From an uncultured Pseudomonadales bacterium (GTDB lineage Bacteria; Patescibacteriota; Microgenomatia; UBA1400; PJMF01), in NCBI GenBank assembly GCA_964406075.1, contig CAYOQI010000004.1:57718-121717 (forward strand): a DNA stretch of 64,000 bases, read 5' to 3'. Below the pieces are notes generated by a model. The model did no database searches. It was not told the origin of the DNA and saw only the letters and a program-made list of their open reading frames with translations. Of the stretch, positions 1,698 to 62,352 are shown one piece after another. Within the stretch, counting starts at the first letter, position 1. Each line of letters starts with the position of its first letter. Position numbers and translations under genes: made by a program.

Positions 1698-1725
1698 TCA
1701 ATACTCTTCAAAAATTATTAAAACA

Positions 1726-4615: not shown

Positions 4616-4771
4616 GACTCATCCGTTTAATTATTTCCATTGAACTAGCCCAGTTAACTCATTGCCAAAATCAGTTTTATTGGTTATATTCTCACCCTTG
4701 TCCTTACAATCTTTCTCTGGATCTCTTGCACTATAATTGACATTTTCATTATTATAGGATATAATCTCCGC

Positions 4772-5560: not shown

Positions 5561-5587
5561 TTGAGATAAACACGCTAGAATAAACTC

Positions 5588-7961: not shown

Positions 7962-8040
7962 GACTGGAAGTATAAGAGGTACAAGGCACCAGATTCAAGC
8001 AGTAAGGAAAATATGATCATCATCTGGACCTATCTGCACG

Positions 8041-8817: not shown

Positions 8818-8867
8818 ATATAAATAGCCTTGACTTTTTTATAAAGAGCAATGAGAATGATGTCTAT

Positions 8868-9197: not shown

Positions 9198-9303
9198 AAT
9201 TCTCTACTTCATTGATCATTTTTAAAAAAAACATAGATCTTTAGAATTTTTTTAGTTATTACCCACTAGTTTCGTACACGCTTTCCGCTGTTATACTACA
9301 AGT

Positions 9304-12564: not shown

Positions 12565-12576
12565 TTGATTTTAAAT

Positions 12577-13634: not shown

Positions 13635-14076
13635 AAGAATTTATACGAATCTGAGTGGTAAAACGGTTTGATTGTAGTTCAAGAGTTAAATCACTTCCCG
13701 GTGGATTTGTTTCTTGCGGGGACAATTCTAGTTGCCCCGTCAATTTCCGAAAAAAAACAAGGTCTGCGGTTGAATTTAATTGAATACCATATTGATAAGA
13801 AATTTGTTTATTTTCAGGCAAAAGCAAGTAGAATCCTGGAGAAACGAATGAGATACCATAACTCTCCCCGTTTTGAGCCACACGTGATTTTTGTTGTGCT
13901 TGCTTGAGCTCAGCCACGATTTTGTCGCGTTCCTTGGTCAATCGTTGGCGCTCTAAAGTTCCAAGTAAATATGGGGTGCTCGCACCAACCACCAACGCAA
14001 TAATTGTCATCACCACAATCAACTCCACTAAAGTGAAACCAGATGAATTCTGATGTTGGGCAGAACGAAAAAACAT
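13597..14076 (-). CDS. Prepilin-type pseudopilin (GspH/FimT-like).
   Basis: NSSG|FTLVELIVVMTIIALVVG is a canonical type IV pilin N-terminus. Confidence 0.7.
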   Translation of the reverse strand: MFFRSAQHQNSSGFTLVELIVVMTIIALVVGASTPYLLGTLERQRLTKERDKIVAELKQAQQKSRVAQNGESYGISFVSPGFYLLLPENKQISYQYGIQLNSTADLVFFRKLTGQLELSPQETNPPGSDLTLELQSNRFTTQIRINSYGVLDTTVPQPL

Positions 14077-34902: not shown

Positions 34903-35838
<936 letters not shown>

Positions 35839-36771: not shown

Positions 36772-39700
36772 ATGATTCCCAGTGATCTGCCCCCACTAGT
36801 CTCCATTCATGAAGCTGCAAAGTTTCTTAAAGTTTCGACAAAAACTTTACGTCGTTGGGAAGATCGACACATTTTGTTACCAGCTCGAACTTCTGGCGGA
36901 CACCGAAGATATGATCTCAACGAGATCAAGGCCTTCAAAAAACAAAAGTATTCCAGTGGCTCAGTCGTTCATCAAACAGTACTCCCACTTGCAACAGTTA
37001 AACCACTTGAATCAAAAGTGGTTGACCAAACAGATATTCTTCAAGTTTCCAAACCACTCATCATCAAACCCATTGATCATTTTCCGTTAAAAACACCGAA
37101 AGTAACTGCATACAAGCCATTCCCAGAGACAATTACGAAAGTAAAAAAAACATTTGAGTTTCCTTCATTCCAAGTTAGAAACAACATTCCTCCTCAGGTC
37201 GAAATTCCCACAGAGAAAATAACGGATTTCCCTATTCCAACCACTCCACCTTCTTGGGTGTCTGTCTCAATCGTGTTGGCTTTTTTCTTTATTTCAGCTG
37301 CAGCATTCAGTATTCAAGGTTTCTTCAAGCCTCTAGTTGCAAAACATCCAGTCCTAAGTGAAATTGCGTATTCCCTCGAAAAGAGATTGGCAATAAATGT
37401 TTTTCCTAAAAAAGAAGTGATGATTGTTCAGGCTAACGATAGCAAAGTCTTGGGAGAACACTCCAGCTTAGATTTTTTAAAATTTAATATTAATGTCGAG
37501 TCTTCTTTTCGCGAGTTTGCGAACTTCCTCTCAGATGTCAATGTCGAAGGAAATGCCACGGTCAGTGGAATTTTAAGTGTGAACTCCGGCTCACTTCAAA
37601 CAACTTCTGAAACAGCTCAAGTTTTTGAAAACGCTTCTACTCTCTCAATTGCTGCGAACACTGGCACCACAACAGTGAACAACTCACTAAACGTGGGTGG
37701 AAATTTAACAGTAATTGGTTTGATAAATGATATTGCCGGTACTCTCAATCTTTCCGGTAATACTTTGACTTCAACTGGTGATCTAGTTATTGATCCTGGC
37801 GGAGGTGGTGTTTCGATTGGAGATGCCACTCCAGGAATTATAGATATGACAGATGGAGATTTTTTTGTTTCAGGCGATGTAGAAATTGACGGCATTTTAT
37901 ACGCACCAACTGCAAATATATCAGGCACTGCGAGTATCGGCACTGTCTTGGTGAATTCCGACAGTATCAATGACTTTACTGGAACAGGCTTGACTGTCTC
38001 TGATGGAGCTCTTCAAACCACAATTGGCACATCGGTTTCTTCCTCTGAAATTGAGAATGACACAATTTTGGAAGAAGATCTTAAAGTCTCAAATGATGCG
38101 GTAAATGGTTATGCTCTTACCTATGATAATTCGACCGGCGGATTCACTTGGACAGATATTGCATCCAGTCAAGTTTGGATCGATGGTGGCTCAGTCTACT
38201 ATCAAGCCACGACCACCGATGATGTGGTGATTGGAGGTACTTCCAGCTTGGGTAAACTCTCGGTCGATGGGGATAGTGATGAAATCCAACTCGTAGTTCA
38301 AGGCAATGGGACGCAAACATCAAACATCTTCGTAGTTGAAGACTCCAGTGGGACAGATCTTTTTGTGGTGAACAATACTGGAAGCATCACCATTGCGTCT
38401 GGCCAAGATCTCACCATTGGGTCGATTGGATTGAATGATGTCGGAACAGATAATGTCACTTCTGGAGCATCACTTATCGGAGTGTTTGATGAATTCACTA
38501 ACTCCTCAGCTACGACACTACAAGATGTCCTCGATGATTTTGACGCTGCTATTGGTGGTGGAGCTTCAAAGTGGGCTCAAGATACTGGCTTTGTTTACCT
38601 AGCAAGTACGACTGACGACATCGTTGTCGGTGGTGACACAATAGCTAATGGTTCTTTGTATTTTGATGAATCTGCGGGAAGTCTGTATCTCGGAACTAAT
38701 GAGGCTTTGAACGGCTCACTTACTCTCTACTCTTCAGGAGCAGGGATAACTGACCCTACGATTACCGCAGATGCTACAGGAAATGCGAATATCACTACCT
38801 CTGCCACAGCCTTAGTAAATATATTAGCGGGTAATTTGAAAGTGGGTAATGGCGCGCCCACTCAGACCTTAAATGGTGAAGATGCCTATGTCGAAGGCAC
38901 GCTTGAAGTTGATGGGATACTCTACGCTGGTTCTGCCACTACAGCCTTAACCGTAGCAAGCGGACTGATCGATGCTGATGCAATTGCTTTAACTCCAACC
39001 ACTGAGGGATTAAGTGGTATCTCATCAGGCTCAGGTTTAGCGGTATACAGCGACACACTTTCTCTTCTCCAAGGTTGTGGTGATGGTCAAGTTTTGAAGT
39101 GGAACGAAACAAATGATTCATGGGAATGTGCAAATGATACCGGCGCTTCTTTTGCCGTGGTAAACATTGAGAACAATGATGTTGCAGTCGGGAGCAATGT
39201 CGATTCCATTGATTTCTCTACTGATTTCTTAGTCACTGCTTCCCCATCAAACGAAGCCAATGTTGCAATCGCCGATGACATTTTAAACTTCACAGAATTC
39301 TCTGATGCCCTTACCTTAGATGCCGCTACCACCATCACCAATTCTTTAGCCGGCAACTTGACAATCGACCTCACTTCAACCGGTGATTTCGTCATTGCAG
39401 ATGGTGGAGTTGCCTTCTTTACCTTTACTGATGGTGGTGCTTTAACTCAGGCTGGAAGCGGTCAAATAACCTTGACTGGAAACGTTGATGCTACAAATGG
39501 TCTTGATATAACAGGCGCTTCCCTAACGGTTGGTGGTGCAAATGCCACGATCACCACAGGTGGAGCGTTAACATTGGCATCAACAATTACAGCAGCGACC
39601 GACGAGACCATTAACGGCGTTGATATCAATGCCGGTACCGTTTCAGATGTTGTGAATTTAACTATTAATTCAGGTGGTGACTTAACCATTGGTTCAATCG

Positions 39701-42700
39701 GTTTGAATGATGTGGGTTCAGACAACATCACTTCCGGTGCTTCCTTAGTGGGAGTGTTTGATGAATTCACCAATTCAAGTGCAACAACTGTTCAAGACGT
39801 CTTAGATGATCTCGATGCAGCAATTGGTGCTGGTGCAAGTAAATGGACTGACTCTGGTACTGTTACCTACCTTACTGACACGACTGACAGTATTACGATT
39901 GGGAGTTCAACCGAACTTGGTAAACTTGCAGTCGATGGAGATGCTGATGAAGTTCAGTTATTAGTTCAAGGTAATGGAACCCAGACCAATGCCCTTGCAA
40001 TTTTTGAAGATTCAACAGGTGCTGACCAATTTAGCATTAGTAATACTGGAAACGTGACGTTAGCTGGAGATTTAACAATCAGTGGTGGAAATATTACCTC
40101 TGCAACTACCTTTGATTCCACCGCAACCGTAACAGGAACATTAACAGCAAATGGCACTTTAGATGCCAATGGGATCTTCACACTTGGTGACAATGGCGAA
40201 ACCGGTGCAATTGATACTTCTGATTGGGATATTTCTGCCACCGGTGTACTCACTGGAGTGAGTGGTATTACCACTGATGGTGGATACACTCAATCAGGCG
40301 CGACCGGAAATACATTTTCAGGCAATGTCGATGCAACTTCTGGCCTTGATGTCACAGGTGCTTCTCTGACTGTCGGTGGTGCAAATGCCACGATCACTAC
40401 AGGTGGAGCGTTAACTTTAGCCTCCACAATTACAGCCAACACAGATGAAACAGTGAACGGAGTTGATATTAATGCAGGGACTGTTTCTGATGTGGTGAAT
40501 TTAACAATCAATTCTGGTGGTGACTTAACTATCGGGTCAATCGGACTCAACGATATTGGTTCAGACAACATCACTTCCGGTGCTTCTTTAGTTGGAGTCT
40601 TCGATGAGTTTACTAATTCAGATGGTCTTAATGTACAAGATGTCCTTGATGACTTTGATGCTGCTATTGGTGCAGGTTCTAGTAAATGGACAGACTCTGG
40701 TACTGTTACCTACTTAACTTCTACTACTGATGACTTAGCCGTGGGAGGATCCACTGTCCTGGCTTCCATGTTTGGCATTGATGAATCGGCAGGAAATTTC
40801 TACTTTGGCTATGACAACTCAGTTTCCCCTACCTTCAACTTTGAAGCCTCTGATGGTGATGCTGGTGAATTTGGATTTAATACCAATGACACATTCTTCT
40901 TCTCCAATGCACGAGTGGGTGTCGGAACGACCAATCCTTCAAGGTTATTACATGTAAGTGATTCTTCAGGGTCGCCCGCCATTAGAGTTACTGGTTCAGC
41001 CAGTGGTTCACCGTTTATTGAGTTCGAACAGTCAGGAAATGTTAGAGGTGTTTTTGGTTATGATAATACAACTTCGACCTTGCAACTTGCATATGGAGCG
41101 AATTTTAGTACTACCTTCCTATCACTAAATAGTTCTGGTTCTATGGGTCTTGGAACCTCTGCACCTGACGCCGCATTAGAAATCAATCATGCTACGGGTG
41201 ATAGTTTACGACTTACATACAATGACTCAAATGGTTCCGCTACCAGCTACACAGACTTCTCTCTCGCCTCTGATGGAGATTTAACAATTGATAGTGCTGG
41301 TGGTGCCATAAACCTTGGTGCAAATGATGACCTCAATATCACTGCTTCTACTGACTTAATCTTTGGAGGATCAACCTCTCTTGGTGAATCTACAGGAGCG
41401 GCTGATTCAGGAGCTTTCTTAACTGGTATTTTTGATGAATTTGATAACTCTGCTTCCTCTACAGTACAAGATGTGATTGATGATATTGATGCAGCTATTG
41501 GAAATAGAACATACACTGCTGATAACTACGTGACTGATGGTCAAACTCTGACAGCTTCCATCAATGCCCTTGATATTGCACTTGCCTCTGTTTCAGGCGG
41601 TGCGTACACAGGATGGAGTATTGACGTGGATGATGACGGAGCTGATCCAATTGCAAGTGGAGCTACGCTGAATGTTGATGCTGGAAGTAATGTGTCATTG
41701 ACCTACACAGCTGGTACCAATACGCTTTTAATTGCTGCTACTGATACAAATACTACCTACACAGCTGGGAATGATCTTGATCTTACCGGAACGGTCTTCA
41801 GCCTAGAAACCACCCTCGATTTTGTCGACACAATTAATTTAGCTGGGACAGGAACTCTCAACGGTCTTGATGCCGTTGATGCTACTGGAGAAAATACTAT
41901 TGAGGCCCTGATCTTTGATACAGATGCTGAAAGTATTACCGGAGTCTGGACGGTAGCTGACTCGACCAACTTCAGAATTGGTACCGGTGGTGACTTAACC
42001 TTCGCTCATGATGGTTCAAACTCTACTATTACTAGTACGACGGGTGACTTACTTATCGACAATACAAATGCCACCGGTTCAACCATTTTTGACCTGGGCA
42101 CAGATACTTCAGCCACTGATTTCCTTATTAGGAATGATTCTGGCACTCAACTCTTAAGCTTGAACGGTGCCGGGGCACTTCAGCTTGGAAGCAATGGTCA
42201 AGATGGTCAGTTCATCCTCTACAACGAACTAGGTGTAACAGATTACACAAACACAATTAACCCAAGTGGTTCTCAGTCCCAAAACATCACCTATACCCTA
42301 CCTCCTGATGATGGTGGCGCTGATAATTACGTTCTCACCACGGATGGAAATGGCGTATTGCAATGGGAATCCGTCACTGGTGCCGGTGGAGGAAGTGGAG
42401 ATCTGACAGATATCATTGCTGGGAACTACATTGATGTTCAAAACGCTGGTGGTCCGAGTCCTACTGTAGACTTTGATCCAACCGAACTTGAAGGAGTGAC
42501 TTGGGGTGCCTCATCTGGCGCCAGTGAACCTTTTACCTGGACGTATGATGTGACGAACTCCGGAACTGATCCTTCCATCACTTTCGCGGACAATGCCATC
42601 ACTCTCACAGCAGCAACTCTTACAGCTAGTGGTGATTTAACAATTCAAGGTGGAGACGCAACGCTTGGAATGGCTGGAACCGATGGTTCGCTCACTTTTT

Positions 42701-45700
42701 ACAATGAACTCGGAGCCACAGATAGAAGTGTTATCTTTAACGTCTCGGGATCGCAGTCAGAAGATATTGTCTACACTCTTCCTCCTGATAATGGAGCTGC
42801 TGACAACTATGTTCTTACCACTGATGGGTCAGGTGTGTTGCAGTGGGAATCAGTTTCCGGAGCTGGTGGCGGAACAGGTGATGTTACCGATATCGTTGCT
42901 GGCAACTACATTGATGTTCAAAATGCTGGTGGCCCAAGCCCAACCGTGGACTTTGATCCAACTGAACTTGAAAGTGTGACCTGGGGAGCACAAACTGGTG
43001 CTTCATTTACCTGGACGTTTAATGCTTCATCTGGCACTGATACCAGTATCGCCTTTGCGGATGGCAGTATCTCCCCCACACTCGCTGCAACTGGACTATT
43101 CAATGTCTTAACTGGAAATTTGAAGGTCGGAAATGGAACACCTGGACTTTCGCTCGATGGTGAAGATGCATATATTGAAGGCACTTTTGAAGTGGACGGC
43201 GCATCTCAATTTGATGGTGCTTTGACAACTAATGGAACGTTAACCGCAAACGGCCAGTTCACACTCGGAGATAATGGTGATACTGGGGCTATTAATACCT
43301 CAGATTGGGATATTTCTACTACTGGTAGTCTCACAGGAATTTCTGGAATTGCGAATGACGGAAGCTATACCCAAACCGGATCAAGTGCAAATGCATTTAC
43401 AGGTGTAACAACATTTAACACTGATGTTGATTTCACCTTCGCTGATACTGAAAATATTGCCATTACTAATACCGTAACAGGCACAAACGGTCTCGATCTT
43501 ATTTCTGCTATTATCACAAATCAAACTTCCTCTGGAACTCAAAGAGGTATTGTTATTTCTAATGCGAACGATGCTGCCAACGCCTCAACTGAGTCATTAA
43601 TCTTCTTAGACAATGCCGAAACTACCGCTTCTACCCTTACAGACGCAATACTCATTACTTCATCTGGTGCTGATGGTGGCATTGTCGATGCCATTGATGT
43701 TTCAGCTGGCAACATCACCAATGCGCTCAATGTCGGTGGGAATAATATCATCGGAACAACAGCAGTCATAAACTTTGATAACTTTGACATTGATGGTTCA
43801 GGAAACCTCGTAACTGCTGGAACATTAACAGCTGCCACGAATGAAACAATTAATGGGGTTGATATCAATGCTGGAACTGTTTCAGATGTGGTGAATTTAA
43901 CAATCAATTCTGGTGGTGACTTAACTATTGGTTCAATCGGTCTCAATGATGTCGGATCAGACAACATCACCTCTGGGGCTTCCCTAGTTGGCATGTTTGA
44001 TGAGTTTGATAACTCTGCGTCCACCACAGTTCAAGATGTTATTGATGACATTGATGCAGCTATCGGGAATCGAACCTACACTGCTGATAACTATGTGACT
44101 GACGGTCAGAGTTTAACCGCTTCGATTGATGCCCTTGATGTTGCTCTTGCTGCTGTCTCCGGTGGTGCGTACACGGGCTGGGATTTAGATGGTGATTCCG
44201 GAACCGCCGAAACCATTGCTAATGGCAATACGGTCAATATCCTCGGTGGCACCAATGGAATTGATACCGTCGTAAGTGCGACTGATACTTTAACTATTAA
44301 TTTAGATACTACGGAAATTGGTACAAGCACTTTTGGATCTGGATCAGGTTTTACTTGGACTTTTGACGCCGGTGCTACTGATCCCACACTTGCCTTTGCA
44401 AGTAACGCCATTACTATCGGGGGTGCTGCTACACTCAACTTTGGCGGTACTCTTGACCTCGGAACAAACACTCTCAGTGATGGCAACTTTAATGGTAACT
44501 GGGCATTTAATAGTGGAAATCTCTCCGGGATTGGAACCATCGGTGCTTCTGGTGCGATTACTGCTGCAACCGATGAGACCATTAACGGCGTTGATATTAA
44601 TGCAGGGACTGTTTCTGATGTGGTGAATTTAACAATCAATTCTGGTGGTGACTTAACTATCGGGTCAATCGGACTCAACGATATTGGTTCAGACAACATC
44701 ACTTCCGGTGCTTCTTTAGTTGGAGTCTTCGATGAGTTTACTAATTCAGATGGTCTTAATGTACAAGATGTCCTTGATGACTTTGATGCTGCTATTGGTG
44801 CAGGTTCTAGTAAATGGACAGACTCTGGTACTGTTACCTACTTAACTTCTACTACTGATGACTTAGCCGTGGGAGGATCCACTGTCCTGGCTTCCATGTT
44901 TGGCATTGATGAATCGGCAGGAAATTTCTACTTTGGCTATGACAACTCAGTTTCCCCTACCTTCAACTTTGAAGCCTCTGATGGTGATGCCGGAGAGTTT
45001 GGTTTTAATACCAGTGATTCCTTCTTCTTTAGTAACGCCTTAGTTGGTATTGGAACTGCAAGTCCAAGCGAACAGCTAGAAGTTGGAGGAAATATCGAGC
45101 TAACTGCTGCAGTTCCTCGTCTTGCGTTTGACAATACGAACGGTGATAACGATTGGTATATACAAGCTTCAGCCACTGGCTTTCAGTTTAGAAACTCATC
45201 TGATAACGTCAACTACCTTTTGATCAATCAAACAGGTCTTGTAAGCATTGGTGGAGATGATTCCCCTGATTATCTGCTAGAACTTTATGATGCCACAGCC
45301 ACTCCTACATTTGCCTTATCTGATGATGATGTTACACACGGACTCACAACACTTGCTCAGACAGATGTGTTTTCTCATCTAACATCACTCTCAACCACAG
45401 CCGGAGGTGCAGAACTTACCACAATCAGTGACACAGATGCTCAAGCACTATCGATCCGAGGCGTGATTGGTTCTACTGACCCGACCGATACGACTCCAGC
45501 AGTTAAGCTTGTAGGTGCAAAGAGTAATGGAACAACCGGTATGGCAGATCTTGGTGCAGCAGAAACAGTATTCCAAGTTGCAAACAATGATGACGCTTCA
45601 GCATTAACAATACTTGGGAATGGAAATGTTGGGATCGGTGATACAACGCCAGCTGCACTTCTGACCGTTGGAACATCAGATGCATTACAAATTGATGCTT

Positions 45701-52173: not shown

Positions 52174-52447
52174 AACACTTGCCGAACTGAATTCATTTTT
52201 GCAATTTCTTCATGAATACTCTTACTTTTCAGATTGAATTGGTATTTTTTGAACTCTGAGATCGAATATGAATATTTTTTATACTCAAAAAAGGGTTGAT
52301 CAATAAACATTTACTACTTTTTAGAAAAATAAGAATACAAACTCTCTTCAGTTTTTTCTCCACAAATTTCTTAATTCTCCTCTGGTATTTCTCAATAATA
52401 AAAGCAGATTAAGTCGGAGATTTTTGGTATTATGTAGATAGAAATTC

Positions 52448-55400
52448 ATGTTCTCATTTCGTCGTCGCCCACTATCTTCCGTATCTAGAAAACGCTCACC
52501 GAAGGTAGTTGTTCTCTTATTGTTGTTAACACTGCTTTTACTCCCAATCGTCTACAGCCTCATTACACGTCCCAATCAAGGAACAGCTGCACCACTCAAC
52601 GCGACTGAAGATTCTACTTCCATCACAATTACATCCCCAGGAAAATATCGAGCAGTGATCCAAAAAGGCGATACCACAGATTACATTCTTTTTTATGATC
52701 TAGCTGAAGATGCCGGTAACCCTGATCCGACACATGAGTTTAAGGGCCCGTGTGTTTTGGAAACAAACACGTATTGCCTGCGAGATGATAGTAACCGAAT
52801 GACAACACTGATTGAGGTGACAGACACCGTTGTGAAAGTTCGGGTCATGGGCAGATTCAATAACGAAGCCAGTACTGATTATCTTGATGATGATACGCCA
52901 CTCTATTTCCCTGAAGTGATCGAAAACTATGCGTTCACTCGTGATGGAGTAAGTGTCATGAACCGTACGGACTTCGCTACGGGAACTGGTGTCACTTTTG
53001 ATGCAGATTCTGGGCACAACGGATATGACTGGCTCGGTGTGTACTCAGATGTCACCGATGGTGCATACGATGACACCGCCAATAATAACTATGGTGATGG
53101 TGCGACTGAGGCTCAAATATCCGCCGATGGAGAGTTTTCTAATACCAATAGTTACTTTCACATGCCTGGAACTGGGAGCTCTACCTACCAAGACGCCTTT
53201 GTCGGTATACATCGAGATGGTTGGTATAGCGATTTAAACTCCAGTGGTGTCCATGAGTGGAATTGGGATGAGGCTGAATCAGGTACGCAGGATTTAATCA
53301 CAGCACAAGAGCAAAACTACAACTCCAGCAGACGTCATGAGGCCAAATGGTATTTCCTCCTGAAAAGTGAATCAGATCTTGATACTGAAGCCGAACGAGA
53401 AGCTTTGAACAATGAAATGATCAATGCCGATATACTCTCCTACACCGTAGGTGAAACGTCCTACGAGATGCCGGTGACTGCAACTGCAATCAATTTTGAT
53501 GCGGATACTGATTACGTCAACGTGCCTGACAACTCAGCCTATGATTTTGGTGATACAGCAGACTACTCTGTTGAAGCGTGGATGATGAGAAATGGAAACC
53601 CTATTTCAGGTGATAACCCCATTGTCTCAAAACGGCTCTGTTGTGGTGCTTCCGGCTGGGAATTCCAGATTCGACTTTCAAGCGCACGAATGCGTTTGCA
53701 AATGACTGATGGAACAGATACGTATGATCTTGAAGGCAGTACGGTTCTTAGTGACCAAACTTGGTACCACGTTGCAGCCGTGTTTGATCAAGACAACGCC
53801 AGCAATAGCATTATCTATATAAACGGTGTTGCAGAAACGATGACTCGGACAGGGACTATTGGAAATTTGGGCAGTATGGCAAGTACCGCTGGACTCGGTT
53901 TTGGTGTTGGTGAGCCTGGTATTGGGAACTATAACAGTTTTTCCGGCCGAATAGCTGAAGTACGAATCTGGGATGATGTGCGAACAGCAGCTGAAATTCG
54001 CGAAAACATGTTTCGACAAATTGACCCCGCATCAGCAAACCTAGTGGGATACTGGAAACTGGATGAAGGGACCGGAACTGCAGTACATGATTCCAGTGCA
54101 ACCGGTGCGAATGGAACAATTGTTGGAGGTGCCACTTGGGACTCAGTCAATGAACGTAAGGCCGATCACTTCAATGAATTTGAATTTGCCCACACACTTC
54201 AGTCAACAGCCCAAAATGCGCAGTACGATATTGATGCTGGAGCATCAAATGTCTCAACAACAGCCAATGGTGCTATTTCCGATAACGCGACCACAGTCAC
54301 AGTTACCTCCACGACAGGCTTTGCCTCTTCGGGAATTGCCTACATTGATGGAGATAAGTTTAGCTACACTGGAACCACTGCCACGACATTTACCGGTGTT
54401 CCCTCTTCTGGTGAACACAGCGTAATTGCTCATGTCACAGGAAGTGTGGTCGCTCAGTTCACGCGAAGTAACACCAACTTTAAGGTTGGTGGCTACCAAT
54501 CCACTGAGAAACCTGCGCAAATTACCAAAGAAGGTATCTCGCAAAAAGAAGGGGTCGATTTCTCAGCTTCTGTAAAGCCAGTAACGGATGGCTACTTTGC
54601 CCAAGACTTAAGTTTTTATGCAGACTTTGCAAGTACGACAGTTGACGTTGGTTCAAACTTGACCAATAGCGGATGTACCCTGACACAAGGTGGCAATGAC
54701 TACACTTTAGGATTTATCACCGTATGTGATGGTGGCTCCGATGACATGACATTTACCTCAACAGGCAATATCGACTATGCCAAAGGAGCCCTTGAGTTTT
54801 CGATCGCGGCATTCAGTACCAGTGCTGACAGTACCGAACGTACATACTTTCGCATAACCGATGGCACCGATGAGTTTCGATTTCGCAAAACATCAGGCAA
54901 TACTTTAGAGTTTTTAATTGATGAAGGCGCTTCCACCTATACAGAATCTATCTCAAGTGCAAACTACAGTTGGGGGTTTTTGGACACTGTTCACATTCGA
55001 CTGGAATGGGATGACAGTGCCTCTACCACAGAAGATGAAATGAAAATTTACATCAATGGAAGATTACCGACCTCCACAGATGCGAGTGGTTTTACCGGTG
55101 CAAATGTGTCTCCTGGTACCACCTTCCGTTTAGGAAATAGTGCAGACTCTGGAGGTACGCACTGTAACTGCTTGATCGATGAATTCAAAATCTATGACTT
55201 CAACGGCAGTGGTGATCAAGTTGGACTGGCCAAGGTTGGAGCCGGTGGTGGAGGTGGTGATTATTTCTATAACCCAAATAATAATCTGACGCTTTCTTTT
55301 GCTCCGGTGGACGCTGGTAATCGAGGTGAGTATCTCTACTTAGGCGCTGATGCCAAAGTCAATGGATATAACTTTGATCTTGCTACCAATGGTGTTGGAA

Positions 55401-58400
55401 GTTCCTTAAATCTTGATTGGGAATACTGGAATGGTGTCGCTTGGACAAGCTTAGAATCCATTGTTGGCTTTACAGATACGACAAGTAACTTAACCCAAAG
55501 TGGCACCGTGTATTGGACTGCTCCACCGACCAACTGGAGACCATATGCGATGAACAGCAAAAATGAGTTCTACTATATTCGAGCTTCCTTAAATGCAGCA
55601 TCTGGTACGTACACCACAAGTCCTGTCGAAAATAGAATCACCACAACAACTCTCTACATTCGAAGCGACACGACACTTAATCTTGAAGATCAAACGTTTG
55701 TCATTCCCACCCAATTCCAACCATCTGTTTTCTGGAAAATGGATGAAGGTCAAGGAACAGCAATCAATGATAGTACTGGGAATAAAAACGACGGAACACG
55801 CCTCAATGCGGTGTGGCAAACGGAAGATATGTGTGTTTCAGGAAAGTGTCTCTATTTTGATGGGAGTGGCAGTCCAAGAGACTATCTGTATAGATTAAAT
55901 GATGACAGTTTCAACTTTACAGCCAGCGAAAGTTTCTCAATAAGTATTTGGATAAAACGTGAACCAATATCTACAGACCCGAATGTGATTCTTGCAAAAC
56001 ATAACTCAAGCGGTGGTGGATATAAAATTCGAATGGAAAATGATGGTGATATCAGTTGTGGAATTGATGATGACAGTACGTACACCCCTGATGCTGAGGC
56101 AATTAGTACGCTCGCCACCTATGATGATAATCAATGGCACCACATCGAGTGTGTCAAAGATGGTACTTCAAGTTTGTCGCTCTATATCGATGGAATACTT
56201 ATTAATACCAACTCCTCTATCTCTGGAGTAGGAAGTCTTGTAAACACGCAACCGTTTTACCTTGGAAATGGCGGTGACGGTTTATCAGATGCATTTAAAG
56301 GCTTCATGGATGAATTCAAAATGTATCCCTATGCTCGAACTGCAGATGAAGTAAAAGCCGACGCTATTGCAGGCGCTGGAAATCGTGGCTCCTCCGCTGT
56401 ACTCGGAGCACAGGACACCGCATTTCTAAATGACGGCTTAGCCGGTTATTGGTCACTCGATGAAGGAACCGCTAACTCTTGTAGTGGAGGAACAAACGAT
56501 AGCTGTGATAAATCTGGCAACAATAATGATGGTGCTTGGCAGGATAATGCCACAAGTACGCGTGGTAAGTTTAGTCGTGGCACAATTTATGATGGAACCA
56601 ATGACAATGTCACCATAACTGATCCAACGTCTGGGACATTAGATTTTGGGACAGGTGATTTTACCGTGTCAACCTGGGTGAACTTCAGTGCTATCGCGAA
56701 TGGAAGTACCCTGCTTGGGAAAAACTTCACTGGTTCGGGAGCCGGGTATGGTATGCGTATACAAACCACTTCCCCGACGATATGGGTGGGAGATGGTGCT
56801 ACTACGGCTGAGCTTGCCCACACGGCAGTACTTTCAAACTCTGCCTGGTATCATGTTGTTGGTGTCAGGAAAAACGGCACATTATATATATACGTGAATG
56901 GTGTACAAGGCTCATCCACTGCATCTTTTACTGGGAATGTGAGTACCACAGGAAATCTGTATTTGGGGGCCAGAGGAACGGGAGCAACAGCAAATATGGC
57001 TGGAAGTTTAGATGAGGTGAGAATATATAATCGGGCCCTTGCTCCTGCAGAAATAACTACTTTATATAACTGGGCACCCGGACCGGTAGGATATTGGAAG
57101 CTGGATGAAAATACGGGTATCAGTGCATATGATTCATCAGGTAATGCTAGCACTGGCACTCTCACAAATAGTCCAACCTGGACACCAGGAAAATTTGGTT
57201 CTGGAGTCAATTTAGGAGGAAATAGTTCCAATCATTATGTGAGCATTGCCGATAATGATCTCTACTCTCCTTCACTCTTTGCAGGAGCTACTATCCAGGC
57301 CTGGTTCAATCAAGACACCGCAACTGCAGCCCGAGACTGGATTGTGGCGAAGGGAAACACAAGTAACTTCGAGTGGGGTCTCGCCGTAAGCAATGGTGTT
57401 CTCTATTGTGAGATCTGGGATTCATCTGGTAGTAGTCAAGCCCAAGTCGTTGCAGGCGTGGTATCCACTGGAGCATGGCACTTCGCCTCTTGCACCATGG
57501 ATAATACCAATGGTGTTTATCTCTATCTTGATGGAGTGTTGCAGGGATCTTCCCCAGGACTTACTGGTGGAATGAGTAATACTACCTCTGCTGTACAAAT
57601 TGGTAATCGTGCCGATGGTGGAGACAATAATTTTGACGGAACTATCGATGAAGTAAAAATCTACAACTATGTTCGTACTCCCGGCCAGATGCTTGAAGAC
57701 ATGAATGGTACTCACCCGGTTGGAGGCTCCCCGGTGGGTTCTCAAATACTTAATTGGAAATTTGATGAGGGCAATGGAACCACAGCAAATAACGAAATAA
57801 CTGGTGGAACAAACGGCACCCTTACCAGTATGGCCACTGCCCCATCGACTTCTTCTTCAGGGTGGACTGCCTCAGGAAAATTTAATAAAGCCTTAGTTTT
57901 TGATGGGACAGACGACAAAGTCGTCATTGACACTGCAAGCGACGCAAATGTGGACTTCAATGCAAGTGAACAGTTTTCTTTGTCGGCCTGGGTGTACTCC
58001 ACCACTGTTCCCACTACTGCAACCGACGAGGATTTAATTATAGGAAAATGGGACGAAACAAGTTCTCAACGTGCATACAGAGTGTTCCTCGAAAATGATG
58101 ATACTGATTCAACAGGTCACATCCGAGTTGAAGTCATGGATGAATCCACCGGAGGAAATGAAATTCTCTCAGCAGTTACGAGTAATGACACTATCTCACA
58201 AAACACTTGGTATCACGTCACCATGACATTTAATGGAACGATCACTGGAGCTGCAAATAGTCTGAAGGTATATCTAGATGGCAAGCAACTTGGTACCAAC
58301 GCAGCGAATGCAAGTTTCGTAGGTATTGATGACGTCACCTCTGATTTCACGGTAGGTGATTATGATGCCACAGACAGTGACGGAGATCTTGATGGCTTTA

Positions 58401-59968
58401 CTGGTCGAATAGATACTGTGCAAGTGTATGGTGCAGAGCTTACAGCAGATCAAGTAAAAATTGTCATGAATGCGAACTCCGGTGTCAACTTCTCTACGGG
58501 TAGAGTTGAAACTGATCAGTCTATTGATGGAACACCATCAAACATAGCTGGATATTGGAATCTGAACGAGAACACAGGGACAACAGTGAATGATACATCT
58601 GGTAATGCAAACGCATTAACGATGAGTGGTGTGTCTGCTAGCTCTTGGGTACCTGCCAAATACGGATCAGGCTTGTACTTCGATGGAGCTGATGATTATC
58701 TCTCTATTGCTGATGATGCTGATTTTGATTTTGCTGCAGTTGATAGTTTTACTATTTCTGCCTGGGCAAAAAACTCTGGCTCACTTGCTTCAAGTCAACA
58801 TATTTTCGTCAAAGGTGACACCACTGATGGGGGCTGGAAACTCTACTTAAATACTGCCGGAAATTACTGTGTCCATTTTGCAGACAACATTAATAATGCC
58901 CCGACTGACTCAGCGTGTTCTTCATCAGGAGGATATGACTACAATGACAATCAATGGCATCACATTACTGCAGTGAAAGTAGCTAACTCTGAACTGCATC
59001 TCTATATTGATGGTGTGCTGGTAGCCTCTGATACAGCATTTTCATACTCCGGAACACTTGCAAACACTGGATCCTTATTGGTGGGCATAGGACAAAGTAC
59101 TACTACAGAAGAATTCACAGGTATCTTGGATGAATTAAAAATTTCGAGAACACCACTTACTGCCTCCCAAGTAGCTTTTGAATACAATCGTGGCCGTTCA
59201 CTAGCCTGGTGGAAATTTGATGACTGTACTGGAACTACTGCATACAATGCTGCCCAAAACGGTAACGGCGATGCGATTGGAAGTAATGGCACCATTACCA
59301 TAGGTGCAACCGGTTCCAACACATCCGCAGGTTCTTGTAATGTCGTGAACACCGCCACAGCTTGGTACAACGGGTTGGTCGGTAAATTTAATAACTCCAT
59401 TGATTTCGATGGCACTGATGATTATGTTTCTGTCGCAGATACAGAGATACTTCGACCAGAGGCAGGTAGCTGGTCCGTATCCTTGTGGGCAAACCCTGCA
59501 AATATCAATCAAAATTCTCCACTTATTACCAAGCGCCTAAACAGTGGGAATTTTGAACAATGGTCACTCTATATCTGTGGAAACATTGGATGTAGTACCG
59601 ATGGACAGCAAGTGCGCTTTGCTTTTGTTGAGGCCGATGGAACTACTGATCGCAAAGCACTCAGCACTCTAGACGTTGTTGATGGCAACTGGCATCATTA
59701 CGTGGGCATAGCCAGTAAAGACGATGACTCCATTATTTTATACAGGGACACAATAGAGCTAACTTCAACTTCTACAACAAATGGTTCCTGGCCTACTGTC
59801 AATAATACTGATCCTGTCCGCATCGCAAACGACAATGGAAGTGTTTACTATAATGGTCAAATTGATGATGTGCAGGTTTTTAACTATACTTTGTCTCAGG
59901 AACAAGTTAAAAAATTGTATAATGAAGGCTCTAGTGCTCGGTTTGGACCAGAAAGTGGAACTCCTTAA
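52448..59968 (+). CDS. Giant (2506 aa) secreted multi-LamG (concanavalin A-like lectin/glucanase, Laminin_G_3-type) domain protein with an N-terminal signal anchor.
   Basis: N-terminal RKRSPKVVVLLLLLTLLLLPIVYSL. At least 8 repeats of the LamG_3 signature: [LV]xGYWKLDEGTGTxxxDSSGNxNxGT, then FDGxDDYVxI, then F[ST][IV]SAW, then W[HY]H[VI], then LY[IL]DGxL, then (E/D)[VE][KR]IYxxxLTxxQV. They start at about aa 370, 520, 1090, 1300, 1500, 1720, 1960 and 2230. Confidence 0.85.
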   Translation: MFSFRRRPLSSVSRKRSPKVVVLLLLLTLLLLPIVYSLITRPNQGTAAPLNATEDSTSITITSPGKYRAVIQKGDTTDYILFYDLAEDAGNPDPTHEFKGPCVLETNTYCLRDDSNRMTTLIEVTDTVVKVRVMGRFNNEASTDYLDDDTPLYFPEVIENYAFTRDGVSVMNRTDFATGTGVTFDADSGHNGYDWLGVYSDVTDGAYDDTANNNYGDGATEAQISADGEFSNTNSYFHMPGTGSSTYQDAFVGIHRDGWYSDLNSSGVHEWNWDEAESGTQDLITAQEQNYNSSRRHEAKWYFLLKSESDLDTEAEREALNNEMINADILSYTVGETSYEMPVTATAINFDADTDYVNVPDNSAYDFGDTADYSVEAWMMRNGNPISGDNPIVSKRLCCGASGWEFQIRLSSARMRLQMTDGTDTYDLEGSTVLSDQTWYHVAAVFDQDNASNSIIYINGVAETMTRTGTIGNLGSMASTAGLGFGVGEPGIGNYNSFSGRIAEVRIWDDVRTAAEIRENMFRQIDPASANLVGYWKLDEGTGTAVHDSSATGANGTIVGGATWDSVNERKADHFNEFEFAHTLQSTAQNAQYDIDAGASNVSTTANGAISDNATTVTVTSTTGFASSGIAYIDGDKFSYTGTTATTFTGVPSSGEHSVIAHVTGSVVAQFTRSNTNFKVGGYQSTEKPAQITKEGISQKEGVDFSASVKPVTDGYFAQDLSFYADFASTTVDVGSNLTNSGCTLTQGGNDYTLGFITVCDGGSDDMTFTSTGNIDYAKGALEFSIAAFSTSADSTERTYFRITDGTDEFRFRKTSGNTLEFLIDEGASTYTESISSANYSWGFLDTVHIRLEWDDSASTTEDEMKIYINGRLPTSTDASGFTGANVSPGTTFRLGNSADSGGTHCNCLIDEFKIYDFNGSGDQVGLAKVGAGGGGGDYFYNPNNNLTLSFAPVDAGNRGEYLYLGADAKVNGYNFDLATNGVGSSLNLDWEYWNGVAWTSLESIVGFTDTTSNLTQSGTVYWTAPPTNWRPYAMNSKNEFYYIRASLNAASGTYTTSPVENRITTTTLYIRSDTTLNLEDQTFVIPTQFQPSVFWKMDEGQGTAINDSTGNKNDGTRLNAVWQTEDMCVSGKCLYFDGSGSPRDYLYRLNDDSFNFTASESFSISIWIKREPISTDPNVILAKHNSSGGGYKIRMENDGDISCGIDDDSTYTPDAEAISTLATYDDNQWHHIECVKDGTSSLSLYIDGILINTNSSISGVGSLVNTQPFYLGNGGDGLSDAFKGFMDEFKMYPYARTADEVKADAIAGAGNRGSSAVLGAQDTAFLNDGLAGYWSLDEGTANSCSGGTNDSCDKSGNNNDGAWQDNATSTRGKFSRGTIYDGTNDNVTITDPTSGTLDFGTGDFTVSTWVNFSAIANGSTLLGKNFTGSGAGYGMRIQTTSPTIWVGDGATTAELAHTAVLSNSAWYHVVGVRKNGTLYIYVNGVQGSSTASFTGNVSTTGNLYLGARGTGATANMAGSLDEVRIYNRALAPAEITTLYNWAPGPVGYWKLDENTGISAYDSSGNASTGTLTNSPTWTPGKFGSGVNLGGNSSNHYVSIADNDLYSPSLFAGATIQAWFNQDTATAARDWIVAKGNTSNFEWGLAVSNGVLYCEIWDSSGSSQAQVVAGVVSTGAWHFASCTMDNTNGVYLYLDGVLQGSSPGLTGGMSNTTSAVQIGNRADGGDNNFDGTIDEVKIYNYVRTPGQMLEDMNGTHPVGGSPVGSQILNWKFDEGNGTTANNEITGGTNGTLTSMATAPSTSSSGWTASGKFNKALVFDGTDDKVVIDTASDANVDFNASEQFSLSAWVYSTTVPTTATDEDLIIGKWDETSSQRAYRVFLENDDTDSTGHIRVEVMDESTGGNEILSAVTSNDTISQNTWYHVTMTFNGTITGAANSLKVYLDGKQLGTNAANASFVGIDDVTSDFTVGDYDATDSDGDLDGFTGRIDTVQVYGAELTADQVKIVMNANSGVNFSTGRVETDQSIDGTPSNIAGYWNLNENTGTTVNDTSGNANALTMSGVSASSWVPAKYGSGLYFDGADDYLSIADDADFDFAAVDSFTISAWAKNSGSLASSQHIFVKGDTTDGGWKLYLNTAGNYCVHFADNINNAPTDSACSSSGGYDYNDNQWHHITAVKVANSELHLYIDGVLVASDTAFSYSGTLANTGSLLVGIGQSTTTEEFTGILDELKISRTPLTASQVAFEYNRGRSLAWWKFDDCTGTTAYNAAQNGNGDAIGSNGTITIGATGSNTSAGSCNVVNTATAWYNGLVGKFNNSIDFDGTDDYVSVADTEILRPEAGSWSVSLWANPANINQNSPLITKRLNSGNFEQWSLYICGNIGCSTDGQQVRFAFVEADGTTDRKALSTLDVVDGNWHHYVGIASKDDDSIILYRDTIELTSTSTTNGSWPTVNNTDPVRIANDNGSVYYNGQIDDVQVFNYTLSQEQVKKLYNEGSSARFGPESGTP

Positions 59969-60142
59969 GCTTCTCTTCTTACGATCATTCAAGAAAGAAA
60001 CTCATTCAGTAAAACTTCAGTTTCCCTCTTACATTTTTCTCTCTATAAACAAGCTTTTTTTTATGAATTTTCTACTTGTATCTCATTGCAAAATACCGGT
60101 ACAATGACTACTTAATATAGTGAAGGTAACTTAATACGCACC

Positions 60143-62296
60143 ATGGCACAACCGTCCACTCGCCCACAATCACTTGATCTCATCATTCCCAAGCTCGTTG
60201 AATATATGCTGTATGGAGCAGTGATTTTAACTCCATTATTCTTTTTACCGTTTCTGCAAAATATTTTTGATACATCAAAGTATGCCCTGCTCTTGATAGT
60301 CACATTGATTTCACTTGGACTTTGGACGGTAAATACGTTGAGACATAAAGTATTACGATTTACTTTTCATCCTTTTACCTTTCCATTAATTCTTTTATCG
60401 TTCAGTATTTTAGTTTCTTCAGTATTGTCACCGGTGTATTTTCTTGAAGATTTTGCGGGAATTTTTGGACTCATCTTTTTCTTAAACTTACTTATTCTGT
60501 TTGGTTCAAGTTTAGTAAAAGTCAAACAAAGTAAAACATTTATTGATATGGCAAGTATTGGGGCCATTTTATTGAGCATCGTTTCTCTTCTCCAGCTCGC
60601 TGGAGTTGGACCAACAGTTGCATTAAATTCTTTACTGACCTTACAGTTTCCAAATACTTTTGCATTCTCTCCCGCTGGATCTCCATTGATTGGTTTATCT
60701 GCATTAGTAACCATCTTGGTACCAATGGTTGTGATGTTGGTTACTAATAAAGCATGGAAAGAAAAAATTCCGACAATGGTAGCTACTGCTATCGTCGCGA
60801 TCGGAGTACTTCTTCATGTCGGAGTAATGGTTGCAAAGCCTGAATTTCGACCTAACCTGCTTCCTTTATCAGCAAACTGGTTAATCTCCGTAGAAATTTT
60901 GAAGAACCTCCCCAGAGCCCTTTTTGGAGTTGGTCCTCAAAATTTTATGGATGCGTATGCTCAATTTCGACCAGTGAGCTTAAACAGTAATGACACATGG
61001 CAACTACTCTATCAATCAGGATCAAACACTCCATTCTTTATTTGGGTCAGTGTCGGGACTGTGGGATTGATTGCTTGGATCTTACTTTTTATTCAAAGTT
61101 TACTATTGCTCAAATCATCTCCAATATCCGCTCGCCCAGTTGGAATCATGGTCGTCACTGCTTTTATTATCGAGTTATTTATTCCGTTTAATATTGTCCT
61201 TGTCGCTCTACAAGCACTGGGTATGTTGTTCTGGATCGCGACACTCAGAGCTGAGCATCATCCCAAAAGTTCAGATATTGTCGTTAGCTTAAATGCCTTA
61301 AAAGTTACTCGCCCTGAAGACTACCCAACAGAAAAGAGAATGGGATCTTTGACATACATCACCACATTTTTTGTTCTGGTTGTAATCGCAGTCAGTACGT
61401 ACGGTCTCTTTAGAGTTATGGCCGGAGAGTTTTTCTTCTTCCAATCACTCCAAGCTGCTCAAGCTAGCGATGTCAAAAAACTGTATGAGATTCAACAAAA
61501 AGCCATTCAATACAATCCATATCGAGATATTTATCGCAGAACCTATGCCCAAACCAACTTTGCAGTGGCATTAAATTTGGCTCAAAAAGAAGGTATTACC
61601 GAAGAAGAAAAAGCCACACTTTCTAAATTACTTCAGCAAGCAATTCGAGAGGCTCGTATTGCCGCAAGTTTGAACCCTGCTCGCTCAGTCAATTGGAGAG
61701 TTTTAGGTGATATTTATCGAGGATTAATTGGTTCAACCAAGAATGCCGAACAGTGGTCAGTCGCATCATATGTCCAAGCCGTTCAAACTCATCCCAATGA
61801 CCCAACGTTGCGTGTTGATCTAGGTGGAATTTTCTTGAGAACCAAAAACCCTGATCAAGCAGCTCAATTGTTCCAACAAGCAGCACAGCTCAAACCAGAT
61901 TACGCCAATGCCTACTACAACTGGGCCCAAGCATTAATTTTACTCAATCGACCAGATACAGCTGTCTTAGCGTATGAGAAAGTTCTCACCTTACTTAAAC
62001 CTGATTCAGCCGATTACGTCAAAACTCAAAAGGAGTTAGTGGATTTGAGAGAAAAAGCCAAGGCCGCTGCAGCTGCTCAACCAAAACCACCTGCTACTCA
62101 AACCGCAACTGGATCAGCTACGACACCCACACCTCAACCAACACCAAGTAATACTCAACCTGAGGAAGCTGCCTTACCTGAGTCAGTCAAGCCATCACCA
62201 GGTTTGTTAGATCAAGAACCTGAAAATGTCCAGCTCGATCCTAATCAAGCCAGTCAATCAGCCACTCCCCAACCCAATCCAACTGCTGCTCCGTAA
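60143..62296 (+). CDS. Wzy_C-family polytopic membrane protein with a C-terminal TPR repeat domain and a Pro/Thr/Gln-rich tail. Candidate O-antigen ligase or protein O-oligosaccharyltransferase.
   Basis: About 11 TM helices. External loop LFGVGPQNFMDAYAQF matches the Wzy_C GxGxxNF motif. C-terminal TPR-like helices (AAQLFQQAAQLKPDYANAYYNWAQALILLNRPDTAVLAYEKVL) are followed by low complexity (PKPPATQTATGSATTPTPQPTPSNTQPEE). Confidence 0.6.
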   Translation: MAQPSTRPQSLDLIIPKLVEYMLYGAVILTPLFFLPFLQNIFDTSKYALLLIVTLISLGLWTVNTLRHKVLRFTFHPFTFPLILLSFSILVSSVLSPVYFLEDFAGIFGLIFFLNLLILFGSSLVKVKQSKTFIDMASIGAILLSIVSLLQLAGVGPTVALNSLLTLQFPNTFAFSPAGSPLIGLSALVTILVPMVVMLVTNKAWKEKIPTMVATAIVAIGVLLHVGVMVAKPEFRPNLLPLSANWLISVEILKNLPRALFGVGPQNFMDAYAQFRPVSLNSNDTWQLLYQSGSNTPFFIWVSVGTVGLIAWILLFIQSLLLLKSSPISARPVGIMVVTAFIIELFIPFNIVLVALQALGMLFWIATLRAEHHPKSSDIVVSLNALKVTRPEDYPTEKRMGSLTYITTFFVLVVIAVSTYGLFRVMAGEFFFFQSLQAAQASDVKKLYEIQQKAIQYNPYRDIYRRTYAQTNFAVALNLAQKEGITEEEKATLSKLLQQAIREARIAASLNPARSVNWRVLGDIYRGLIGSTKNAEQWSVASYVQAVQTHPNDPTLRVDLGGIFLRTKNPDQAAQLFQQAAQLKPDYANAYYNWAQALILLNRPDTAVLAYEKVLTLLKPDSADYVKTQKELVDLREKAKAAAAAQPKPPATQTATGSATTPTPQPTPSNTQPEEAALPESVKPSPGLLDQEPENVQLDPNQASQSATPQPNPTAAP

Positions 62297-62321: not shown

Positions 62322-62352
62322 CAAAAAAGCTGACTAAAAGTCAGCTTTTTTT
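62322..62352 (+). terminator. Rho-independent terminator of the Wzy_C-TPR gene.
   Basis: aaaaaagctgactaaaagtcagcttttttta: stem agctgact/agtcagct followed by a T7 tract. Confidence 0.65.

Follow-up and report, generated by a model that had tools for sequence, protein, structure and literature searches.

We describe a candidate surface-attachment module in a 64,000-nucleotide stretch of DNA from an uncultured bacterium (positions 57,718 to 121,717 of the forward strand of contig CAYOQI010000004.1, assembly GCA_964406075.1; hereafter, the window). The region at 34903-62351 contains two giant genes, g1 and g2, and a gene for a polytopic membrane protein, which we call gene3. We tentatively favor the view that this region is a conserved surface-attachment module and that gene3 works like a protein-directed transferase of lipid-linked glycans. 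We do not hold this view more firmly because the canonical catalytic residue is absent, the conservation of gene order is no stronger than for housekeeping neighbors, and the function is one that we infer. Since the same order of genes is found in many related bacteria, gene3 may plausibly help to attach sugars to surface proteins.

The open reading frames (ORFs) of both giants and of gene3 lie where the first-pass annotation (an earlier, search-free reading of this DNA) had put them, all on the + strand, with gene3 directly after the giants. From its ORF, composition and repeat map, g1 (36772..52173) is a fibre of 5,133 amino acids (aa) that is predicted to be a type-II membrane-anchored protein. 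According to Pfam and hydropathy, g2 (52448..59968) encodes a signal-anchored protein of 2,506 aa with at least eight LamG/concanavalin-A-like lectin domains. gene3 is at 60143..62296. The intergenic gaps are 275 bp (g1-g2) and 175 bp (g2-gene3), and all three genes are co-directional. Our terminator scan found no terminator between these genes, and it did find a terminator-like palindromic hairpin just after gene3 (62323..62351).

gene3 encodes a 717-aa polytopic membrane protein with a WaaL-fold domain, one extra transmembrane (TM) helix, a domain of tetratricopeptide repeats (TPR) that is predicted to be extracytoplasmic, and a tail rich in Pro, Thr, and Gln. Its AlphaFold model has a predicted local distance difference test score (pLDDT) of 84.7 and a predicted template modeling score (pTM) of 0.81, and it has the polytopic fold of WaaL, including a large loop that is predicted to face outward. 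If the N-terminus is set inside the cell, then the helices of the model would place the Wzy_C-type loop (aa 232-295) outside, and the eleventh helix (aa 402-430) would carry the TPR domain and the tail to the outside. The TPR domain (aa 444-645; 61472..62077, + strand) was delimited from the helix map of the model and the Pfam TPR families. Pfam places the repeats at about aa 514-623, and they form the expected tandem 34-residue helical hairpins. So, the fused repeats of periplasmic type that were reported earlier are present, and they are predicted to face outward. The low-complexity Pro/Thr/Gln tail follows at aa 646-717.

gene3 belongs to the WaaL/Wzy_C fold superfamily. The Wzy_C domain that had been claimed for gene3 is correct at this level because 8 of 30 full-length homologs match Wzy_C in Pfam (PF04932; best E = 2.8e-15); because hhalign aligns the gene3 family with a canonical Wzy_C paralog from elsewhere in the window (17436-18788) across the GxGxxxF...AH motif region (E = 1.5e-4); and because the model is confident. 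BLASTP found no significant match between gene3 and the paralog. When we searched PDB sequences, the profile of the full gene3 family matched TPR proteins only, and a profile of the membrane domain had no match. Foldseek matches of the gene3 model to PDB were dominated by TPR proteins as well and told us nothing about the membrane domain. With 2,098 clusters at E ≤ 1e-30, this is a large family, and the best 150 relatives are all about 640-740 aa long.

The family has a distinctive signature loop at aa 246-308 (60878..61066, + strand), which we identified from column counts and from hhalign. Columns were counted in 92 homologs from the loci that we fetched (described below) and, separately, in 145 independent representatives of 50% clusters. 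The residues of the loop are W246, G262-x-G264-P, [RK]276-P, N281, W286, S294, and G305. S294 takes the place of the Wzy_C histidine: hhalign sets "QSGSN" of gene3 against "QPAHH" of the paralog, with S294 opposite the paralog's His. In this column, the 92 homologs have mostly Ser (48), Arg (12), Phe (11), or Ala (7), and the 145 representatives have mostly Ser (89), Ala (17), Arg (11), or Thr (11). It is never His, and just 2 of the 145 representatives have a His within three columns on either side. Thus, the lack of the conserved His in gene3, which had been noticed in the first pass, extends to both sets of homologs. The position of the canonical Glu is Thr in most members. Other positions barely vary: among the 145 representatives, K46 is conserved in 142, N281 in 143, W286 in 144, and G305 in 145. 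The near-invariance of K46, W246, G262-x-G264, [KR]276-P, N281, W286, and G305 shows that this is a distinct and strongly constrained subfamily, not a decaying copy. Since the usual catalytic His is replaced, any chemistry by gene3 must differ from that of WaaL or PglL.

The conserved basic positions of the family are K46, K/R254, and K/R276. In the mechanism that we favor, gene3 would use these residues to bind a polyprenyl-phosphate-linked glycan at the outer face of the membrane, and would transfer the glycan to a protein acceptor that is held by the TPR domain. The candidate acceptors are the neighboring giants or pilins. gene3 would then act like WsfB, PglL, and PilO, which are O-oligosaccharyltransferases for S-layer proteins or pilins.

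We compared the surroundings of gene3 across relatives, using 15 loci from exact-protein look-ups and 80 loci from a metagenome scan, with flanks of ±10 kb. The fetched loci (L001 and so on) were collapsed to 61 lineages at 60% identity and were then searched with g1 and g2. Pilin-like ORFs were scored by the signal GF[TS]L[IV]E. A g1- or g2-like gene lies within 3 kb upstream of gene3 in 14/37 lineages, always on the same strand, as compared to 1/38 lineages for the downstream side. Within 10 kb, the corresponding figures are 10/20 upstream and 2/22 downstream. Pilin-like ORFs show the same bias: they lie within 3 kb upstream in 13/44 lineages, often between the giant and gene3, and within 3 kb downstream in 2/42. 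Adjacency to the acceptor's gene is frequent, and not obligatory, for transferases of the PglL type, and across lineages gene3 adjoins potential acceptors of both kinds, giants and pilin-like ORFs. In the window itself, the Pfam scan found no pilin gene adjacent to gene3.

Individual loci show the arrangement more fully. For example, L028, on a 1.4-Mb contig, repeats the order in the window: a relative of the 34903-35829 gene (see below), then g1-like, g2-like, and gene3. Distant members of the gene3 family are found in operon-like, same-strand runs with fibre genes, PMT-type enzymes of glycosyltransferase (GT) fold C (GT-C), family 2 glycosyltransferases (GT2s), and methyltransferases. In L015, a g1-like gene ends 18 bp upstream of gene3, and methyltransferases, GT2s, and a PMT_2-like protein follow. 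In L011, gene3 is in a run with a g2-like gene and a pilin-like ORF. The run in L014 has gene3 with a g1-like gene, a TPR protein, a PMT-type GT-C enzyme, and a 930-aa collar-domain protein.

Some of the loci that lack a recognizable giant have a fibre-like gene directly upstream of gene3. L009:8294-9925 encodes 544 aa with a Peptidase_G2 autoproteolytic domain. The 930-aa protein of L014 is likewise upstream of gene3 (L014:5488-8277), and its match is a weak one to phage tail-collar proteins. Because fibre-like genes turn up in loci that were scored as having no giant, our homology-based count of fibre genes beside gene3 is probably an underestimate. Also, adjacency to a giant is statistically independent of adjacency to housekeeping genes (7/19 lineages with housekeeping neighbors vs. 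4/10 without), which mildly favors a specific link between gene3 and the giants.

Several results weigh against our reading. First, gene3 itself does not match Wzy_C in Pfam, either as the full protein or as aa 1-466, even at E ≤ 10, so the support for the domain call is indirect; and PglL_A (PF15864) and PglL_B have no Pfam match in gene3 or in any of the 30 listed homologs. Second, none of the gene3 homologs that we examined has the catalytic His of WaaL and PglL; Ser, Ala, Arg, Phe, or Thr stands in its place. In E. coli WaaL, H338 is essential, and R215 and R288 are functionally important; these residues are conserved in PglL, whose His is H349 (PMC3643930). We could not assign equivalents of WaaL's R215 or R288 among K46, K/R254, and K/R276. 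Third, where the 10-kb flanks are complete, no giant is near gene3 in about half of the lineages. The co-occurrence of gene3 with giants, which had been proposed as a check, is supported by the upstream bias, but housekeeping-type genes are kept downstream of gene3 as often as giants are kept upstream: Obg in 14/38 lineages, LysM-M23 in 19/38, and Rho in 12/38. Since these neighbors are kept equally, and gene order is conservative, being neighbors is not enough to prove that gene3 and the giants are enzyme and substrate, and the synteny of gene3 may be inherited ancestral gene order. Fourth, the pathway for the donor lies outside of the module. The glycan locus of the window is 32 kb from g1, and we found no priming phosphoglycosyltransferase among the window ORFs that we scanned. 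Finally, N-x-S/T sequons, which had been counted in favor of glycosylation, concern N-linking enzymes of the STT3 type and not Wzy_C enzymes. Overall, the dedicated protein-glycosylation route that the first-pass annotation proposed is supported by the fold, by the outward TPR domain, by the directional synteny, and by the precedents of WsfB and PglL, but the His is missing, the sequons are irrelevant, and the glycan locus is distant.

Many of these results would also fit a core envelope enzyme, either a Wzy-like polymerase or a ligase for glycopolymers of the wall or membrane (TuaE-type), with no specific link to the giants. We consider this explanation, the main rival of our own, to be doubtful. 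It would imply that gene3 is beside the giants only because surface genes and the ancestral order stayed together. A very large family with a uniform architecture is what would be expected of a core gene. The commonest neighbor of gene3 is the LysM-M23 peptidoglycan hydrolase (19/38 lineages for a distance of up to 3 kb, and 15/22 for up to 10 kb), a LytR_C protein adjoins gene3 in L008, Obg and Rho are kept at rates similar to the giants, and a giant within 10 kb is missing from half of the lineages with complete flanks. Nor would the chemistry be an obstacle: Wzy-type polymerases rely on Arg or Lys residues in outer loops and are not known to need a conserved His. However, the strong bias of giants and pilin-like genes towards the upstream side and the same strand speaks against a core enzyme, and so do the tight gaps to fibre genes in L011, L014, and L015. 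The TPR domain is typical of transferases that recognize proteins, and there are no genes for polysaccharide export or chain length beside gene3 in the window.

It is less likely still, and we think unlikely, that gene3 is an inactive scaffold with a WaaL fold. Its membrane domain would then serve as the anchor for a TPR platform on the outside, with the Pro/Thr tail reaching further and spanning the wall, and the platform would dock, chaperone, or position the giant fibres or pili. The family-wide loss of the canonical His, with Thr for Glu in most members, would be explained, as would the conserved length of the TPR domain and the low-complexity tail (as seen in the 150 top relatives) and the adjacency of gene3 to fibre and pilin genes. 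But conservation in the protein is highest in the outward loop, and the invariant K46, N281, W286, and [KR]276 look like a ligand-binding or active site instead of decay. The distant members within glycan-synthesis clusters also argue against a scaffold.

The remaining glycosylation genes are at the other end of the window. The first-pass annotation described a complete set for assembling lipid-linked glycans at 1812-7961. A GT-C-fold protein (2657..4615, +), a GT2 (4772-5560, +) that is akin to the synthases of polyprenyl-phosphate sugars, a GT4 (5588-6715, +), and a flippase of the Polysacc_synt/Wzx type (6705-7961, -) are indeed there, the last three by Pfam, but "complete" overstated the case because no priming enzyme was found. 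Among the fetched loci, this glycan locus accompanies gene3 in just two others, L092 and L015. The GT2 matches ArnC and Pyrococcus dolichyl-phosphate mannose (DPM) synthase (5mlz) in PDB, and having this enzyme as a neighbor suggests that the GT-C-fold protein uses a single sugar on a polyprenyl monophosphate as its donor.

The GT-C-fold protein has 652 aa, and it is like an oligosaccharyltransferase in its architecture. Its model has a GT-C transmembrane fold and a C-terminal globular domain, and in both parts it most resembles the N-oligosaccharyltransferases STT3B, AglB, and PglB. ALG12, ArnT, and PMT score nearly as well against the model, and the protein has roughly four more helices at its N-terminus than STT3, AglB, or PglB do. 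It does not belong to any Pfam or NCBIfam family, and a search of PDB sequences with its family profile found no match, so there is no sequence-level similarity to any oligosaccharyltransferase there. The WWDYG motif is absent from the family consensus. In the C-terminal domain, the first strand is followed by SDPATQ, which we take to be at the position of WWDYG, as judged by eye against the PglB sequence. SDPATQ is invariant in the family, and so are NWDxYxHQ (166-173), S192-D193, and N372-x-G374-E375, which are in loop regions of the model. Oligosaccharyltransferases of the STT3/AglB/PglB type have acidic DxD/ExD residues in external loop 1 and a TIxE/SVSE motif in EL5. In our homolog search, this family was restricted to Microgenomates-type sequences.

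Could this protein, fed by the adjacent GT2, glycosylate the giants, with gene3 playing no part? Sequons offer some support: g1 has 103 N-x-S/T triplets, as compared to 80 ± 7.5 in shuffled sequences (z = 3.1), and the excess is driven by N-x-T (67 vs. 46 ± 6 expected). But the excess is modest and inflated by repeats (about ten of the triplets are within repeated modules), the bacterial extended sequon D/E-x-N-x-S/T is not enriched, and for g2 the N-x-S/T count gives z = 1.4. So, of the earlier description of the fibre as enormously rich in both Ser/Thr and sequons, the first half holds (Ser+Thr is 23.0% of g1) and the second does not. We also discarded the sequons as evidence for a Wzy_C enzyme, because they relate to N-linking enzymes and the excess is small and repeat-inflated. 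Given that WWDYG is absent, that no sequence matches an oligosaccharyltransferase, and that the locus is 32 kb away and seldom travels with gene3, we consider this explanation to be quite unlikely, despite the relationship of the GT2 to ArnC and DPM synthase and despite the PMT-type GT-C genes that accompany fibre genes in L014 and L015.

The canonical Wzy_C paralog (17436..18788, +; 450 aa; Pfam Wzy_C E = 2.5e-9) retains both the His ("AHH," as reported in the first pass) and the Glu ("AELG"), and it carries "QPAHHVGLLMLAELG". It is the sole other Wzy_C-like ORF in the window, and not one of two such paralogs besides gene3, as had been claimed. It sits between genes for an M16 peptidase and ArgRS. 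In L003-5 (L003:1-2235), just 72 bp separate those genes and the Wzy_C gene is absent from the gap, so the paralog reflects a lineage-specific insertion or loss.

A second cluster of surface or secretion genes is at 8041-14076. It opens with a gene for a sortase (8041-8817, -), which is followed by those for a coupling ATPase like VirD4/TrwB (9304-11454, +) and for a protein with a VWA domain (11455-12564, -); also in the cluster are two ORFs of about 175 aa that have no annotation and a type IV pilin-like gene (13597..14076, -; Pfam N_methyl E = 1.9e-8) with the class III signal "SGFTLVELIVV." By the motif scan, this is the only pilin-like ORF in the window. Homologs of the sortase are 4-8 kb downstream of gene3 in L017, L018, L055, L079, and L081. 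Sortase anchoring of the giants was considered and rejected: g1 has a sole LPxTG-like motif (LPATG, aa 4445), which is followed by another 688 aa up to the C-terminus and by no anchor, and g2 has none.

Returning to the giants, g1 is rich in Thr, Gly, Ala, Ser, and Asp, and its ectodomain of about 4,950 aa is very acidic (12.6% D+E vs. 1.6% K+R). A chunked self-BLAST shows a mosaic of dispersed repeat modules, such as QDVxDDxDAAIG, which occurs seven times; Tandem Repeats Finder reported no tandem DNA repeats in the giants. At the N-terminus, g1 has a helix-turn-helix (HTH) domain of the MerR/HTH_17 type (BldC/excisionase-like; aa 10-59; 36799..36948, +), with matches to MerR (E = 2.2e-9) and HTH_17 (E = 3.2e-7) in Pfam and to BldC in NCBIfam (E = 1.2e-7). 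The Pfam scan of g1 found nothing past this HTH. A single transmembrane signal-anchor follows at aa 163-181 (37258..37314, +; hydropathy peak of 2.37). Because the first 162 aa are net basic (25 K+R vs. 15 D+E), we predict that the N-terminus is cytoplasmic and that g1 is anchored at the surface in the type-II orientation.

This HTH start is not an artifact, because six other protein fragments from Patescibacteria open in the same way, with an HTH, a membrane helix, and the same fibre-like start (one of them has two tandem HTHs). A homolog search with the first 260 aa of g1 found only short HTH proteins, and these proved to be truncated starts of HTH-TM-fibre proteins. Two complete g1-like giants, in L034 (2,999 aa; 572-9568) and L030 (1,586 aa; 4611-9368), have a phage-integrase SAM-like domain and then a membrane helix. 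Thus, among g1-like giants, two unrelated DNA-binding-type folds occupy the same position before the anchor. We know of no description of giant fibres that are headed by a cytoplasmic HTH or integrase SAM-like domain and a membrane anchor.

The other end of g1 has a conserved region of about 590 aa (aa ~4547-5133; 50410..52170, +). With tblastn, it is matched at 25-37% identity in L003-5, L008, L013-15, L019, L025, L027, L030, L031, L034, and others. The g1-like giants of L034 (E = 5e-14) and L008, which share this C-terminal homology, contain Peptidase_S74; g1 itself has no Pfam match to Peptidase_S74 (PF13884). Judging from these relatives, the end of g1 is probably tail-fibre-like.

Divergent from g1 is a gene for a 308-aa membrane protein (34903..35829, -), which we analyzed with BLASTP and by comparing loci. 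It has a signal-like N-terminal segment, a domain of about 65-125 aa in common with the C-terminal region of g1 (BLASTP E = 7e-5 against g1 aa 4625-4688), and a terminal two-helix hairpin. The hairpin has a weak likeness to ATP synthase subunit c (Pfam ATP-synt_C, E = 3.1), with the carboxylate absent. In L009/L010 and L028, homologs are transcribed away from a g1-like giant; in L065/L082, they are directly upstream of gene3. In the window, this gene comes after iPGM, and the block of ATP synthase genes ends 1.7 kb away.

As for g2, it has a signal anchor or TM segment at aa 21-39, and Pfam finds Laminin_G_3 in eight stretches (E = 6.4e-159) as well as Toxin_R_bind_N (E = 2.6e-42), which agrees with its earlier description as a giant lectin. 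Its homologs are upstream of gene3 in L001, L011, L013, L017, L018, L028, L032, L052, and L063.

Overall, the window resembles a chromosome from small-genome Patescibacteria (CPR, for candidate phyla radiation), because of its GC content (0.35-0.47), its mix of surface genes with interspersed housekeeping genes (ArgRS, LeuRS, ComEC/ComEA, ATP synthase, iPGM, and Obg), and the few named homologs of its proteins, which are from Blackburnbacteria, the Microgenomates group, or "Patescibacteria group." GC content is 0.43-0.46 over both giant genes (window 38001-60000), as compared to 0.36-0.41 in the flanks. The contrast, of 0.44-0.46 for the giants with 0.39 for the flanks, raised the idea that the giants are a horizontally acquired island, but coding for Gly, Ala, Thr, and Asp is a simpler explanation, and the module is conserved across lineages. 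The higher GC is probably an effect of this amino acid composition and not of foreign origin.

By the current view, Patescibacteria live in attachment to other cells, and this module, which pairs giant fibre and lectin proteins, and often pilins, with a membrane protein that has a WaaL fold and TPR, is a lead into how they build and decorate the attachment apparatus. If gene3 is active, then the WaaL/PglL fold can work without a histidine that is considered essential, and the family would provide more enzymes for bioconjugate engineering. The OST (oligosaccharyltransferase)-like GT-C protein and the DNA-binding-type heads of the fibres are separate leads, on protein glycosylation and on outside-in signaling. 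A more ambitious joint claim, to which we give little credence, is that gene3 represents a new class of transferases with a WaaL fold that work without the His, that number in the thousands in Patescibacteria, and that glycosylate or covalently anchor giant fibres and pilins via an outward TPR domain that binds the acceptor, and that the giant fibres are bifunctional. In that case, the MerR/BldC-like HTH or SAM-like heads might couple surface contact to the chromosome, as membrane-tethered regulators like ToxR or as chromosome anchors like RacA at the site of attachment. In the literature, we found no account of the gene3 module, of a His-less WaaL-fold/TPR family, or of DNA-binding heads on giant fibres. 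Still, the module is not categorically new, because its fold, architecture, and genomic logic have precedents. What is new is the remodeled active site and the unusual partners.

Among these precedents, WaaL itself (PF04932; Cupriavidus metallidurans, PDB 7TPJ) has, like gene3, a large outward loop and a GxGxxxF motif, and then a helix that ends in GxxG. Some members of the gene3 family match the Pfam model, whereas gene3 does not, and its identity to WaaL is 11%. In gene3, Ser replaces the catalytic His, and a TM helix, the TPR domain, and the Pro/Thr tail are added. Patescibacteria-type organisms are not known to have lipopolysaccharide, and hence they would have no lipid A-core acceptor of the kind that WaaL uses.

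The same superfamily includes the protein O-oligosaccharyltransferases of the Wzy_C family, namely PglL of Neisseria, PilO/TfpO of Pseudomonas, and WsfB/WsaB of the Paenibacillus/Geobacillus S-layer. WsfB and PglL are reported to have Wzy_C along with a C-terminal TPR motif (PMC2943079), and pglL genes adjoin their pilin targets in 21 of 31 genomes (PMC3643930). Similarly, gene3 adjoins possible acceptors, being downstream of pilin-like genes or of giants in the lineages counted above (13/44 and 14/37). Unlike PglL, gene3 has neither a PglL_A match nor an equivalent of H349, and its candidate acceptors are giant fibre and lectin proteins. TfpW, the arabinosyltransferase for group IV pilins of Pseudomonas aeruginosa, is a polytopic transferase with a periplasmic TPR domain, and its gene is downstream of pilA (bioRxiv 10.1101/2020.04.19.049825). 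The layout that we propose for gene3 is like that of TfpW, a transferase of lipid-linked sugars with TPR at its C-terminus, encoded directly downstream of its substrate. However, the fold of TfpW is GT-C, with a DDx motif, instead of a WaaL fold. Wzy polymerases of O-antigen or capsule and the TuaE-type Wzy_C proteins of Gram-positive bacteria belong to the same broad superfamily as gene3 and also have an outward loop that is rich in basic residues. They differ in lacking a TPR domain and in being encoded, normally, in polysaccharide clusters. Such clusters also have Wzx/Wzz and a priming transferase, and gene3 is not flanked by any of these in the window.

For the GT-C-fold protein at 2657-4615, the nearest parallels are STT3, AglB, and PglB. 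As archaeal Agl loci do, the window has this gene together with a GT2 of the DPM1/ArnC kind and a flippase of the Wzx type, but the protein differs from those enzymes in its lack of WWDYG and of sequence-level similarity, and in its additional N-terminal helices. For the giants, g2 is a multi-LamG protein, like the concanavalin-A-like/LamG giants of Patescibacteria, which have been proposed to mediate attachment (PMC12911398). Homologs of g1 carry Peptidase_S74, Peptidase_G2, or Collar domains that are typical of trimeric phage tail-fibre or endosialidase proteins, although g1 has no S74 match. g1 and its relatives differ from tail-fibre proteins in that they begin with a cytoplasmic HTH or integrase SAM-like domain and a membrane anchor.

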